41,610 bases of DNA from a virus (IMGVR_UViG_2537561977_000020); one strand, 5' to 3'; shown: positions 22,569-36,718, counted from the stretch's first letter. A program made the numbers and translations. The notes: generated by a model from the sequence alone, not told the origin.

Positions 22569-23141
22569 ATGACTAAGAAGCTGAAAGCAAAACACGAGGT
22601 GTTTTGTCGCGAGTTTCTTGTCGATCTGAATGCTACACAAGCAGCTATTCGCGCAGGCTACGCCTCCAGGCGAGCACATGTTACGGGGGCTGAACTATAC
22701 GGTAAACCTGAGATACGCGCCCGTATTAACGAGCTAAAGCAGGAGCGTATTGATCAACTGGGCATTGATGCGAATTATGTGCTGATGCGACTGGTTGAGA
22801 TCGACAGGCTCGATGTGGCTGACATCCTGGAGGACGATTTAAGTATTAAGCCTCTGTCTGCGTGGCCGGAATCGTGGCGTCGGTACCTGAGTGGATTTAA
22901 CCTCGCTGAAATGTTTGAGGGGCGAGGAGATGACAGAGAAATGGTCGGGATCCTTAAAAAGATTAAGTGGCCTGATAAGGTTAAAAACCTTGAGTTGCTT
23001 GGGCGTCATGTTTCTGTTCAGGCGTTTAAAGACAACGTCAAAAATGAAGTGACTGGCGCTGACGGAGGACCAGTCAGAACAGAAATTACCAAATTAACGC
23101 CTGAGCAGGCCGCAGAGGTGTATAGAAAAATGATGGGCTAA
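22569..23141 (+). CDS. terminase small subunit
   Basis: N-terminal [24 protein letters not shown] typical of Terminase_2-type small subunits; precedes large subunit. Confidence 0.6.
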
Positions 23142-27034: not shown

Positions 27035-28379
27035 TTATTACCGAAATGCTGGCGTTTGACCGGGCATCGGTAAGGCAGTTCGATAAAGTCGGTCGCCTCC
27101 AGATTGAGCGCAGTAATCTCAGCAAGGCGAACGTCTGCGGTTATTTCGGGTATGAAATACCGGGGGCGGAAGCGCTGGGACTCGACCCCAAAAAACTTTA
27201 TCAGCTTTACCGTGACCCCGATGAACTGCGCAAGGCAGTTTCAACCTTCAACAATATTCCCGTCCTGTGCCGACACAAACCCGATTATCCGGGCGCGCCC
27301 GCGCGCGAGTACCGGGTGGGGACGACTCATGCCAACAGCGAGTTTGACGGTACCTATCTGGTTAACGGCATGTCCATCTGGGACAACTCCGCCATCGCGG
27401 GGATAGAAACGGATGAACAACGGGAAATCTCATCGTCATATGCCTATGTGGCAGATATGACGCCGGGAACCACCCCCGACGGTGAGCCGTATGACGGCGT
27501 TATGCGGAATATCGTGGGAAATCATGTGGCCCTGGTCGGCGATGGCCGGGTAGGGTCGGACTGTCTTGTTATGGACTCTCTCCCTCAGGAGCTAAAACGC
27601 ATGAAACTGAGTAAAAAGAAGTGGCGGTGCTTACCGCGCTGGGAACCTATCTTGCGCCGCGTCTGGCGCAGGATGCGGCTCCCGGGGATTTGTTACGCCT
27701 GATGGCGCAGTATAAGCGTCCGGCAGCTATCGCCAGCGCGGTAAAAACTGCTTACAGCGAACGGCTGGCACAGGATATGGATATTGAACCGGCGGAGCTG
27801 GCGCAACTGATGGAATCAGCAGAAGCCGTACCGGAGCTGGTCGGGGATGATGATACCGGGTTAACTGACGAGTCGAAGGCATTTGATACCGACAGCCCGA
27901 TGGAAAGTGTACTGGCGTTGCTGTCCGGCAAAGTTCCTGATGATGTGCTGGAAAAAATTAAATCCGCACTGTCTCCGACAACCGACGAAGCCCCCGAAAC
28001 AAAAGAGGCTGATGTGAAACCCGACGATGTGAAAGTCGATAAACCTGCGATGGATGCAGCAATCAGGCTGGCAACTGACCAGGCAACGAAACGGGCTGCT
28101 GAAAATTTCCGCGCCGTCCGTGTGGCTGAAGCTGAAGTGCGACCGCTGATTGGCGATGTGGTGGCGATGGACTGCGCCGAAGATGTTTACCGTACCGCGC
28201 TGGAACAGACGGGGATCGATATTCAGGGTATTCACCCCGGTGCGTACCGCAGCATGGTGAAGTTTGCCGTTGAGCAGAAGCAGACGGCCAAATCCTCTCC
28301 CCGTGTGGCGATGGATCAGGCCAGCGCATCGACGTTTGCGGCAGATTTCCCCGGTGCAAAACTGAAACGAGGTTACTGA
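27031..28379 (+). CDS. head protease/scaffold-like protein (Mu gpI/DUF2213-like), possibly frame-broken
   Basis: N-part [11 protein letters not shown]...[12 protein letters not shown]; acidic scaffold-like C-part begins at GTG 27621 in -1 frame; A5 run 27613-27617 at junction. Confidence 0.45.

Positions 28380-32154: not shown

Positions 32155-32174
<20 letters not shown>
31628..32174 (+). CDS. hypothetical tail-associated protein, frame-broken
   Basis: Track ORFs 31628..31951 and 31839..32174 differ by +1; junction near T4 run 31939-31942. Confidence 0.35.
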
Positions 32175-33639
<1,465 letters not shown>

Positions 33640-34086
33640 ATGTCGGGTAACAACAACACCATCACTGCGGCGGATGCCATTATCACGCTGACAGTGAATA
33701 ATCTGTATCCCTCCGGCGTACGACTTCAGGGATTTGCAACAGATAACGTTTATGGCACCGATCCACTGGTACTGGCGGAAACTGCCCGCGGTATTGACGG
33801 TAAACTGTCCGCGGGATTTGTGTACAGCAACATTATCCAGACGTTTCATATCATGCCGGATTCCCCCAGCCGGGATATTTTTGATACCTGGTCAACCACA
33901 TCCCGGGCCAGTCGGGCTGTATTCCGTTGTAACGCTGTCGTCCTGCTTCCGGCGATTGGCCGTAAATATACCTGCGTGAATGGCGTACTCAAACAATGGA
34001 AAGCGCTGCCTGATGCAGCTCGTACGTTGCAGCCAGGGCAGGCGGTTATTGAGTGGGAAACCATTACTCCGGAGGTTTTTAACTGA
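33640..34086 (+). CDS. tail tube protein
   Basis: 148-aa ORF directly after sheath and before chaperone/tape-measure genes. Confidence 0.5.
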   Translation: MSGNNNTITAADAIITLTVNNLYPSGVRLQGFATDNVYGTDPLVLAETARGIDGKLSAGFVYSNIIQTFHIMPDSPSRDIFDTWSTTSRASRAVFRCNAVVLLPAIGRKYTCVNGVLKQWKALPDAARTLQPGQAVIEWETITPEVFN

Positions 34087-34490
34087 TGGCCCGTAAAGAG
34101 AAATTTATCACTATTGAAGGTCAGGGACGGGATAAGGGCAAGGTATTTCATCTTACCGAAATGTCTGCCTCACAGGCGGAATGGTGGGCGATGCGTGCCA
34201 TTATGGCAATGGGGCGTGGTGGCGTGGAGTTACCGGATGATGTTCGTAGTCTGGGGATGGCTGCGCTTGCCCTTGAAGGGCTGAAAGCATTATCGAAAAT
34301 TCCGCCTGATGAGGCGCGTCCGTTGATGGATGAAATGATGGACTGTGTGCAGTTTGTTCCCGATCCGAAAAAACGCAGCATCCGGAGACCGCTTGTTGAA
34401 GAGGATATTGAAGAAATCATTACCCGTCTTAATCTGCGTGCGGAGGTCTTTAAGCTGCATGTGGATTTTTTCGCTACCGTCGTCAGCTAG
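34086..34490 (+). CDS. tail assembly chaperone (G-like)
   Basis: 134-aa acidic protein between tube and tape measure; slippery heptamer near 3' end. Confidence 0.5.
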   Translation: MARKEKFITIEGQGRDKGKVFHLTEMSASQAEWWAMRAIMAMGRGGVELPDDVRSLGMAALALEGLKALSKIPPDEARPLMDEMMDCVQFVPDPKKRSIRRPLVEEDIEEIITRLNLRAEVFKLHVDFFATVVS

Positions 34491-34714
34491 ATATCCCCCC
34501 GCGTTATCTCGACCCCGACAGACCGTTCGGGGTGGTGGATTACGTTAATGTTCCCCGTACCATTGCGACCGTTATCTCCTCCGGTAAGGCTTCAAAAGCT
34601 GAACTGGATTCTGTCCTTGGTGTGCAGGACTTATGGGATCTGCTGGAAATAATTCATGTGGATGCCCATAACGAACAGGTGATACAGGAGAACAGAAATG
34701 GCGCAGGTACTTGA
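34086..34714 (+). CDS. tail assembly chaperone frameshift product (GT-like, -1 frame)
   Basis: Heptamer T TTT TTC at 34466-34472; -1 frame open to TGA 34712-34714. Confidence 0.45.
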
Positions 34715-36718
34715 TGAGCTTGTTCTGTCCCTCGGGATTGATGACAGGGACTTTACTGCCGGGGAACAGGCAGTACATGCTGCCCTTAACCGGCTCACGA
34801 CGGTGATGGAAGGTGTCGCTGACACATTCAGTCAGGGACAGAAGAAAACCAGTGAATCACTGGAAAAAACCGGAAAAGATGCTGATAAAACGGCCCGTCG
34901 AATGGAAGATGCCGGGAAACGGGCGTCCCGTTTTTTTTCAGGGATCCGTAGCGAGATTCTGGCTCTTGCGGGTGTCAGTCTGACGCTGGGGGGGCTGAAG
35001 AACCTGGTAACAGGTTTTGCCCGTGATCTGAACCGTCTGTCCGTGGAATCTGATGCTTTTGGCATGAAGGCCAGAAATCTGGACGGATGGTTACGGGCTG
35101 CGCGGGCAAATAATGTTGATGAAGGGGAAATGTCTGGGGCATTTTCCCGGCTTGCAAATGCAAAAGCGGCCTTCAGAGCCGGAAGGTCCTTTGATCCTGT
35201 GTTACAGGATTTGTTTCAGGTTGCAGCCAGGGCGGGCATTAGTGTTGATTTAAATACTGACAGCACTGAAGCCATCATGCGCAAGCTGGCGGTTATTTTT
35301 CCGCGACTGACAAAGTCCGAACAAACTGCCTACGGCAACGCGCTGGGCTTCAGTTATGCCGGACAGCAGTTTCTTGGCTCCGGTCATGCGCTGAAAGATG
35401 TGGACGAATTTACTTCCCGTTCGCAGGTTACGCCGGGGCGTATAGCGCTGGCCCGTAAGCTACGAAAAGAGCTTGTTGAGCTCGATCAGACCTGGTCCGG
35501 CATCGGGATGACGATTAGCACCGCGTTGATGCCGTACGCGCTGAAGCTCAGCCACTGGCTGGAGACACTCGGTGACTGGATGCAGCAACATCCGGAGGAA
35601 GTGAACAGGTTTATCACCACATTTCTGAATGACGTTGAGTCAGTGGCCTCCCTGGCGAATAAGGCTGCCGGAGAACTGGGGGGCTGGCAGAATGTCATTA
35701 TTACGCTGATCGGGCTGAAAGTGGCGTCATGGGTGCGGGGGTTGACAAAAGCCCTCAGTGGCCCCGGAGGCCTTCTTTTTGCGATAACGGCGCTTTACCC
35801 GGTTGTTGACGGATTACTGACATCCATTGTTGGCAGGGAAAATAAGGACTGGCTGGATTCACATGGTTTTTTCTGGGCTTCAGACGGGACTTTCTTTTTC
35901 AATAAGAAAGAGATGGAGACGTATCAGACAAAACTGGATGCCGGAGAAAAGCCTGGCAACATCACCCGGGCACAATCACCCACAGTATGGCAGCAGGGCA
36001 TGCTGGATACTCAGGCTTCTCAGGCAACCGGGAGGGAAGCAGCCTTCGGTGAATCCTGGCTACAGGGTATGCGTGCGACGCAGGAAAAACTCGGTAATGC
36101 CATGCAAAACCGCCAGCGACCGACGAAGACCGGGGAAGCCCTGTTAGGCTGGCTGCAACCGAAACTGTCTCAACTGGAGGAAAAATATAACCTGCCGCCC
36201 GGACTGCTGCGCAGCGTTGCGATCACCGAATCCCGTGGTAATCAGTTTGCCGTCTCACCTGCTGGTGCGATGGGACTGTTTCAGTTCATGCCGAAGACGG
36301 CCAGTGAATTTGGTCTGAGGGGGAACGATGCCTTTGATCCCGAAAAAGCCGCTGATGCCGCCGCGAGAAAACTTGGTGGCCTGATACGTTTTTTCATGGC
36401 GATCTGGCTAAGGCTCTGGCGGCATATAACTGGGGAGAGGGAAATGTTCAGCGTAAGGGACTGGCTGCTGCTCCGGAGGAGACCCGCAACTATATTCCGC
36501 GGGTGCTGGCGAACCTGCCTTATCCGGGTGCGGCAATGGCCATACGGTCGCGCCATCCTGCGCCTGTATCGCAGTCCACCGTAACGGAAACCACGCATAT
36601 CGGGACACTGAATGTCACCACAACGTCGGACAATGTGAAGGGTATTACCGATGACGCACGTCGGCGTATCACGAATTCGGCGCTTGTGTCGGTTTATTCC
36701 AGCGGGGTAACAGGATGA
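34698..36718 (+). CDS. tail tape measure protein with C-terminal lytic transglycosylase (SLT) domain, frame-broken
   Basis: SLT motifs ITESRGNQFAVSPAGAMGLFQFMP and (after -1 shift at T6 run 36389-36394) ALAAYNWGEGNV; track ORFs 34698..36584 and 36503..36718. Confidence 0.6.

Follow-up and report, generated by a model that had tools for sequence, protein, structure and literature searches.

A predicted programmed -1 ribosomal frameshift joining two open reading frames of the tail assembly chaperone locus in an enterobacterial prophage family

The sequence analysed here, a stretch of 41,610 nucleotides (IMGVR_UViG_2537561977_000020) that we call the window throughout, contains from position 22958 on a late region that is 99.6% identical to a prophage located beside yebY in E. 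coli FDAARGOS_943. To the left of this region, 23 kb (1-22957) do not align with the early part of the FDAARGOS_943 prophage, and the prophage of the window is therefore a mosaic. Other E. coli copies of this prophage are interrupted by IS600, IS66 or IS421 at various points. The local gene order is sheath (DUF3383), tube, chaperone, an open reading frame in the -1 frame and a lytic tape measure, and the prophage belongs to the contractile-tailed type (Table 1). Two of these genes are damaged in the window. The sheath gene carries single-base indels at 32517 and 33065, and the tape-measure ORF is truncated at 36584; the RefSeq tape-measure CDS is intact with 2022 nt.

Table 1. Features of the chaperone locus and its neighbours. 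Positions refer to the window; products of a -1 shift are predictions.
Feature	Position	Strand	Remarks
Tail sheath gene (DUF3383)	32155..33639	+	Three ORFs in the window; RefSeq WP_001122282.1 intact, 1485 nt
Tail tube gene, 148 aa	33640..34086	+	PF22764 E217_Gp32, E = 1.8e-17
Tail assembly chaperone ORF (G), 134 aa; assignment supported by label and synteny	34086..34490	+	phrog_1932; RefSeq WP_000101350.1 'hypothetical protein'
Slippery heptamer T_TTT_TTC	34466..34472	+	Proposed site of tandem -1 slippage, two tRNA-Phe
Zero-frame stop UAG, terminates G	34488..34490	+	Five codons past the heptamer
-1 extension (T), 80 codons + TGA	34472..34714	+	Readable only after the shift; phrog_3976 match
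Tape measure, 673 aa, C-terminal lytic transglycosylase	34698..36718	+	phrog_2013/2276/9570; PF01464 SLT
Predicted tryptic peptides			Junction LHVDFFR; -1 extension QLDIPPR, YLDPDRPFGVVDYVNVPR

The protein encoded directly upstream of the chaperone is related to gp32 of phage E217, which cryo-EM has identified as the tail tube protein (PMC10329688). RefSeq names the protein encoded at 33640-34086 'phage tail fiber protein' and the PF22764 entry bears the title 'Tail fiber protein gp32'; set against the cryo-EM tube, the tail-fiber name appears to be a propagated misnomer. The stop codon of the tube gene overlaps the chaperone start in the sequence TGATG, and a Shine-Dalgarno motif (GGAGG) is found 12 nt upstream of this ATG. 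The chaperone ORF, here termed G, matches the PHROG family annotated as 'tail assembly chaperone' with E = 3.2e-59 over residues 1-131 of 134. The extension in the -1 frame, termed T, is matched by phrog_3976, a family of unknown function (E = 4.5e-31), and phrog_18181 gives a single alignment that spans the proposed G/T junction (E = 5e-8). In Pfam and NCBIfam neither G nor the fusion GT has any family at E <= 1, and because such models are absent RefSeq lists two separate hypothetical proteins at the locus. The second of these is a protein of 60 aa (WP_000228829.1, 34532-34714) with GTG as start codon. The tape-measure gene that follows has its own Shine-Dalgarno motif (AGGAG) 8 nt upstream of the ATG. 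An AF2 model of the chaperone (pLDDT 78.5) has no counterpart in the PDB. Among predicted structures, annotated chaperones of unrelated phages are only weakly similar to it. Taken from the PHROG label and the synteny, a role of the 134-aa protein as tail assembly chaperone is supported.

Close to the 3' end of G the sequence reads TTTTTTC. The initial annotation had pointed out this heptamer, and its position as well as an X_XXY_YYZ phase are confirmed: counted from the ATG, base 34466 is the third base of the GAT codon for D127, and T_TTT_TTC lies over D127-F128-F129. Five sense codons (15 nt) separate the heptamer from the UAG, and the distance of 18 nt to the stop given earlier is correct if one counts to the end of the stop codon at 34490. 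The -1 frame is closed up to 34453 and open from 34454 to the TGA at 34712-34714. Reading after a slip would comprise 80 codons, of which 74 follow the zero-frame stop; the earlier estimate of about 75 open codons thus stands, as does the statement that the -1 frame stops just inside the tape-measure start (it ends 17 nt into the ORF that begins with ATG 34698). Over 37 nt both frames are open, and T_TTT_TTC is the sole slippery tetramer or heptamer within this overlap. The predicted products are G with 134 aa and 15.2 kDa and GT with 209 aa and 23.7 kDa, the junction of the latter reading ...LHVDFF|RYRRQLDIPP... Heptamers of this kind are not rare. The long ORFs of the window hold 48 canonical in-phase heptamers in 16,524 codons (0.0029 per codon), and about 0.035 would be expected by chance in the overlap zone of roughly 12 codons. 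Judged without comparative data, the lone heptamer at 34466 is only mildly unusual and no more than suggestive, and these frequencies are what speaks for a chance occurrence, in which the T run would just encode Asp-Phe-Phe and the open -1 frame would be fortuitous.

A T run in a sequence such as this one calls for caution. The initial annotation had warned of many apparent homopolymer errors elsewhere in the window, and comparison with RefSeq NZ_CP065615.1 bears this out: 11 single-base indels occur in 18.6 kb (22961, 27612, 29818, 29839, 30040, 30771, 31482, 31933, 32517, 33065 and 36388), seven of which alter the length of runs of three to seven identical bases, and the sheath, DUF2213 and tape-measure genes are among the late genes that they break up. 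Substitutions between window and RefSeq are mostly transitions and resemble natural variation. The indels may be sequencing errors or genuine decay of this prophage copy. One of them is instructive. At 36388-36395 the window has T6 where RefSeq has T7, which truncates the tape-measure ORF and creates a spurious in-phase TTTTTTC with a -1 extension of 44 codons; in all E. coli references this is one continuous gene of 2022 nt. The other in-phase heptamers with a long -1 extension that we considered (27187/27190 and 36389) are by-products of the indels at 27612 and 36388 and were rejected. A comparable error at 34466, with a true run of T7 and a single long ORF, is thus conceivable in a window that contains gene-breaking homopolymer indels. 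Against it, the T6 run at 34466 shows no indel relative to RefSeq, and seven complete E. coli chromosomes, with adjoining genes intact, match a region of 1161 nt around the heptamer at 100% identity; an eighth is 99.8% identical. T6 followed by C, once T7, recurs at the same position in 79 of 80 relatives and in 51 distinct sequences, and the best 120 protein homologues all end at about 134 aa. On these sequence comparisons an error in the T run is effectively refuted. The site can be told apart from the errors around it, as the initial annotation had demanded, by its identity in independent complete genomes and its retention in dozens of diverged relatives.

These relatives were sought at the protein level because a megablast search of the region against the phage collection gave no match. 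The set of close relatives consists of 80 IMG/VR loci with 100% to 59% amino acid identity to the window chaperone. In 79 of them T_TTT_TTY starts exactly 22 nt before the stop, in the form T_TTT_TTC with one T_TTT_TTT. The latter stems from locus L078, in which a T7 run is followed by A and still fits X_XXY_YYZ. In these 79 loci the -1 extension continues for 68-74 codons past the stop, against a +1 frame that is short and erratic; loci that deviate are clear indel variants. In one locus (L062) the chaperone is truncated at 33 aa and in three others (L002, L028 and L081) the T extension is truncated. Such broken versions of G or T in a few viral contigs may come from decaying prophages or from assembly errors. 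Codon usage within the heptamer is nearly frozen. Among the 51 distinct nucleotide sequences D127 is GAT in all, F128 is TTT in all and F129 is TTC in 50 with a single TTT, while other invariant columns mix their codons (Asp 38:13 and 42:9, Phe 24:27). Only four of 45 columns that are invariant in amino acid and degenerate in code are frozen to this degree, three of these four being those of the heptamer. All 51 distinct sequences have TAG as zero-frame stop, and the motif L-H-x-D-F is conserved to more than 90%. Conservation is poor in the last five residues of G and better in the overlapping -1 reading R-R-x-L-D. Because it is conserved across relatives, the heptamer is far beyond chance. 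A fortuitous heptamer is difficult to reconcile with three consecutive invariant codons next to Asp and Phe columns that vary freely, or with a -1 ORF of 74 codons that is conserved as protein across genera, and the comparative data already refute this explanation.

The extension itself evolves as a protein in the -1 frame, and this is evident upstream of any annotated start. Pairwise differences at codon positions 1, 2 and 3 are 0.22, 0.13 and 0.48 in the extension core and 0.27, 0.26 and 0.49 in the linker upstream of GTG 34532, a stretch of 20 codons that likewise evolves as -1-frame protein. Directly after the zero-frame stop the residues LDIPP are invariant in 48 sequences and their codons vary synonymously. 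By these patterns of codon change the extension is a -1-frame protein from directly past the zero-frame stop. In ten sequences a TGA in the -1 frame abuts the heptamer, and a shift would therefore be confined to the heptamer and the five codons that follow.

One may ask if the extension is made from a gene of its own, as a 60-aa protein starting at GTG 34532, with the heptamer being irrelevant. This is what RefSeq/PGAP annotates (WP_000228829.1), and phage records likewise list a separate small ORF. Yet GTG 34532 has no Shine-Dalgarno motif, unlike the chaperone and tape-measure starts with their GGAGG and AGGAG, and its column is occupied by a non-start Leu codon (CTN) in 26 of the 48 sequences and by Val GTA or GTC in four more. 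No start-codon column in the extension is conserved among the 48 sequences. In 13 of them the first 30 extension codons contain no ATG, GTG or TTG at all, and among candidate extension starts an SD-like motif is found only in Pantoea PA-1. The protein-like evolution of the codons upstream of the GTG and the invariant LDIPP also speak against two independent genes, as do the frozen synonymous sites of the heptamer and an in-frame G-T fusion in a Ralstonia phage described below. We therefore regard separate initiation of the extension as very improbable.

More distant chaperones, with 59-35% identity to that of the window, are present in cultured phages of Pantoea, Pseudomonas, Edwardsiella, Acinetobacter, Burkholderia, Aeromonas and Acetobacter. 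In these phages the genes are ordered alike and the -1 extension is homologous, its core being approximately NVPxTIAxVxSxxxATLxELxTVYGxxDLxxLLEI, and across eight host genera the extension is conserved at the protein level. The order from tube to tape-measure gene is held in the eight distant phage records that we inspected, one per host genus, and seven of these have an in-phase heptamer. It is TTTTTTC in the Pantoea and Pseudomonas phages, TTTTTTA in those of Edwardsiella and Acinetobacter and GGGTTTT in those of Burkholderia and Aeromonas; Acetobacter phage phiAO1 has GGGTTTT and TTTTTTA, which overlap and are both in phase. All these heptamers sit at a conserved H-x-D/G-F-F/L motif and are followed by a homologous T domain. 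The spacing of 22 nt between heptamer and stop is also seen in the Pantoea, Pseudomonas, Edwardsiella and Acinetobacter phages, that is in four of the eight distant records; elsewhere it amounts to 61 nt (Burkholderia), 91-94 nt (Acetobacter) or 112 nt (BcepB1A). With a query spanning the junction, nearly all phages are matched by tblastn in two pieces. None of the eight distant records has a joined CDS; a small separate hypothetical ORF is annotated instead. In BcepB1A (AY616033.2) the annotators went further: gp15 is E, a 'pre-tape measure frameshift protein', and E' is annotated from exactly the in-phase TTTTTTC.

The variety of heptamers bears on how a shift in frame could arise. RNA polymerase might slip on the T6 run and add one U, with a fraction of mRNAs then encoding GT; a single extra T does place the extension in frame, T runs are prone to slippage, and L078 has T7. 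Efficient slippage of bacterial RNA polymerase is, however, documented on runs of about nine A or T (PMC5009743), and the run here has six. Moreover, relatives use GGGTTTT with no more than four to five T, always in X_XXY_YYZ phase. Codon phase constrains a ribosome but is of no consequence to RNA polymerase. That the nucleotides change and the phase is kept argues for slippage of the ribosome and against slippage of RNA polymerase, and we consider a transcriptional origin of GT highly unlikely.

Two branches depart from the common layout. The record without a heptamer is Klebsiella phage RCIP0114 (OR532908.1, ~1935-1977), which has the two-frame layout with the sequence GCT TTT GTA and thus a T_TTT tetramer only. 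KP12, KpnBHU6 and ST15-VIM1phi2.1 belong to the same Klebsiella branch. A shift in this branch would need slippage in the P site only or some other mechanism. The second case, recovered by tblastn, is Ralstonia phage RS-CA1 (PP316169.1), where positions 297-857 form a continuous G-T ORF of 186 aa. Its alignment covers residues 6-195 of the predicted fusion (E = 1e-10), and an in-phase heptamer is absent. The ORF is followed by a separate G-only paralogue of 135 aa (854-1261), annotated as 'tail protein'. Judging from this gene arrangement, RS-CA1 appears to make both chaperone forms from two genes and without a frameshift. The fusion together with the G-only gene provides independent evidence that T acts as an extension at the C-terminus of G, with both forms being wanted. 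Among the best 120 matches in a database of 5.8 billion proteins there is no naturally fused homologue of about 205 aa; all 120 are G-only proteins of about 134 aa. The two-frame arrangement is therefore maintained and has not collapsed into one ORF.

At the level of sequence the locus has every feature of the G/GT class, namely the gene position, a -1 overlap without initiation signals, an in-phase heptamer and conservation. The claim that it carries the conserved frameshift of tail assembly chaperones is supported by synteny, the phrog_1932 match, the heptamer, the synonymous constraint on it and the conservation of the -1 protein. We thus predict a programmed -1 ribosomal frameshift of the lambda G/GT and P2 E/E+E' type, and put its probability at roughly 90%. 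Ribosomes would initiate at ATG 34086 and translate the chaperone, and most of them would move through the heptamer unshifted and terminate five codons later at UAG 34488-34490, which yields the 134-aa G. A minority would slip back by one base with one tRNA-Phe on UUU in the P site and another on UUC in the A site. Both tRNAs would re-pair with UUU, and reading in the -1 frame would continue from CGC at 34472 to UGA 34712-34714 to yield the 209-aa GT. By analogy with lambda and P2, G might coat the tape measure encoded just downstream and the T domain might recruit the tube protein encoded just upstream. The efficiency of the slip would then fix the ratio of G to GT, which by the same analogy would be required for correct tail assembly, and, as in lambda, neither form would be expected to end up in the virion. 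The layout of the sequence, its conservation, the coding signal of the extension, the lack of initiation signals and the in-frame fusion homologue are observed, and from these and the known systems we infer the slip itself, its efficiency and the chaperone activities.

How the heptamer might reach a useful efficiency deserves a closer look. Single-sequence folds of the RNA downstream of the heptamer were no better than shuffles (z = -0.38 and -0.21), and RNAalifold of 14 relatives gave a consensus structure of -0.6 kcal/mol and no conserved structure. The only stable hairpin begins about 38 nt downstream, which is too distant, and is unconserved. An SD-like motif upstream, GGAGG at 34442-34446 and 19 nt from the heptamer, was rejected as a stimulator as well; it reads GAAGT in relatives of 60% identity. 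U_UU.U_UU.C belongs to the motif class H_HH.U_UU.Y, which is efficient in E. coli (PMC4066793). In published reporter data UUUUUUC shifts at 0.12% without a stimulator, and the level rises to 0.9% if the IS911 stimulator is present and to 7.6% if the IS3 pseudoknot is; the P2 site UUUUUUG has the same 0.12% in the stimulator-free reporter. The efficiency of the P2 type is described as two to three fold that of lambda (Atkins review). The 0.12% of the heptamer alone, the conserved L-H-x-D-F and the fixed spacing of 22 nt to TAG have led us to consider that the family reaches useful frameshifting on U_UUU_UUC without known cis stimulators, by means of an undescribed stimulator. This is a speculative proposal and unlikely to hold. 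Candidates could be the near-invariant nascent peptide K-L-H-V-D-F-F or the UAG five codons downstream, and the fixed UAG might act via a termination pause or via ribosome queuing.

The frameshift in tail chaperone genes is a conserved phenomenon and has been known since 1993-2004 (reviewed in PMC5009743). What is proposed here is hence a known mechanism; the site in this prophage family is unannotated in RefSeq, and in the distant relative BcepB1A it is annotated. In the passages of Sharma et al. (2014) that deal with T_TTT_TTC clusters (yegX, ybcH, yddA) the window family is not among them, and the prophage tail chaperone cluster shown in these passages has A_AAA_AAG. Our search of the literature for frameshifting in Obolenskvirus and related genera returned only an analogous analysis of a different family, and a similar comparative argument was indeed published recently for that myovirus family, Pakpunavirus. 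Current understanding is left unchanged, and the value of the finding is mainly practical. For want of Pfam and NCBIfam models, the chaperone pair is annotated as two unrelated hypothetical proteins throughout this family, which is widespread among enterobacterial prophages and myophages of Acinetobacter, Aeromonas, Edwardsiella, Burkholderia, Pseudomonas and Pantoea. Annotating a joined CDS, with ribosomal slippage placed at the D-F-F heptamer, would set hundreds of records right. The locus also serves as a worked example of how programmed recoding can be separated from homopolymer errors in a noisy assembly; the spurious site at 36388 fails every comparative test. The near-universal G/GT rule gains one more independent lineage, and RS-CA1 offers a natural two-gene variant that is useful to study why the ratio matters.

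Among the characterized systems P2 E/E+E' is similar in many respects. Both phages have contractile tails, and in both two overlapping ORFs lie between the tube and tape-measure genes. The heptamers are T-rich (T TTT TTG in P2, T TTT TTC in the window), the extension has no start of its own and reaches as far as the tape-measure start, and a downstream stimulatory structure is absent in either case (for P2, PMC3091744). The P2 frameshift (Christie et al. 2002, as summarised in PMC3091744) takes place on T TTT TTG without a downstream structure. The proteins differ. G and GT of the window have no detectable similarity to any Pfam TAC family at E <= 1, P2 gpE included, and they are longer (G 134 aa, in P2 91 aa; GT 209 aa, in P2 142 aa). 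Furthermore, the event in P2 is experimentally proven, whereas that of the window is predicted from sequence. With lambda the locus shares the gene position, the placement of a -1 shift close to the 3' end of G and a two-product logic. Lambda is a siphovirus, in contrast, and sequence homology to the window was not detected. The lambda slip site is G GGA AAG and is read by tRNA-Lys, while that of the window is U-rich and would be read by tRNA-Phe. The lambda G/GT system has been studied extensively (Levin et al. 1993; Xu et al. 2004, 2013, 2014; reviewed in PMC5009743); in lambda the tape measure is bound by G and the tube or major tail protein by T, with the ratio of the two forms being important (Atkins review).

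Closer in sequence is BcepB1A, whose T domain is homologous (34% identity, E = 1e-9) and whose T_TTT_TTC likewise falls on the FF dipeptide. The synteny of a sheath-like gp17, gp16, E/E' and tape measure is alike, and the frameshift was recorded by the annotators. The G part of BcepB1A is too diverged for a tblastn alignment, its heptamer is found 112 nt ahead of the zero-frame stop as compared to 22 nt in the window, and BcepB1A is a virulent soil phage as opposed to an enterobacterial prophage. RS-CA1, finally, has homologous G and T domains and encodes both a G-only and a G-T product. It differs in using no frameshift, with a single 186-aa GT ORF followed by a duplicated G-only gene. Pairs of tail assembly chaperones that do without frameshifting have been proposed for T4-like phages (Vladimirov et al. 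2022, cited in PMC12846349). The separate GT and G genes of RS-CA1 are consistent with a need for both forms of the chaperone.
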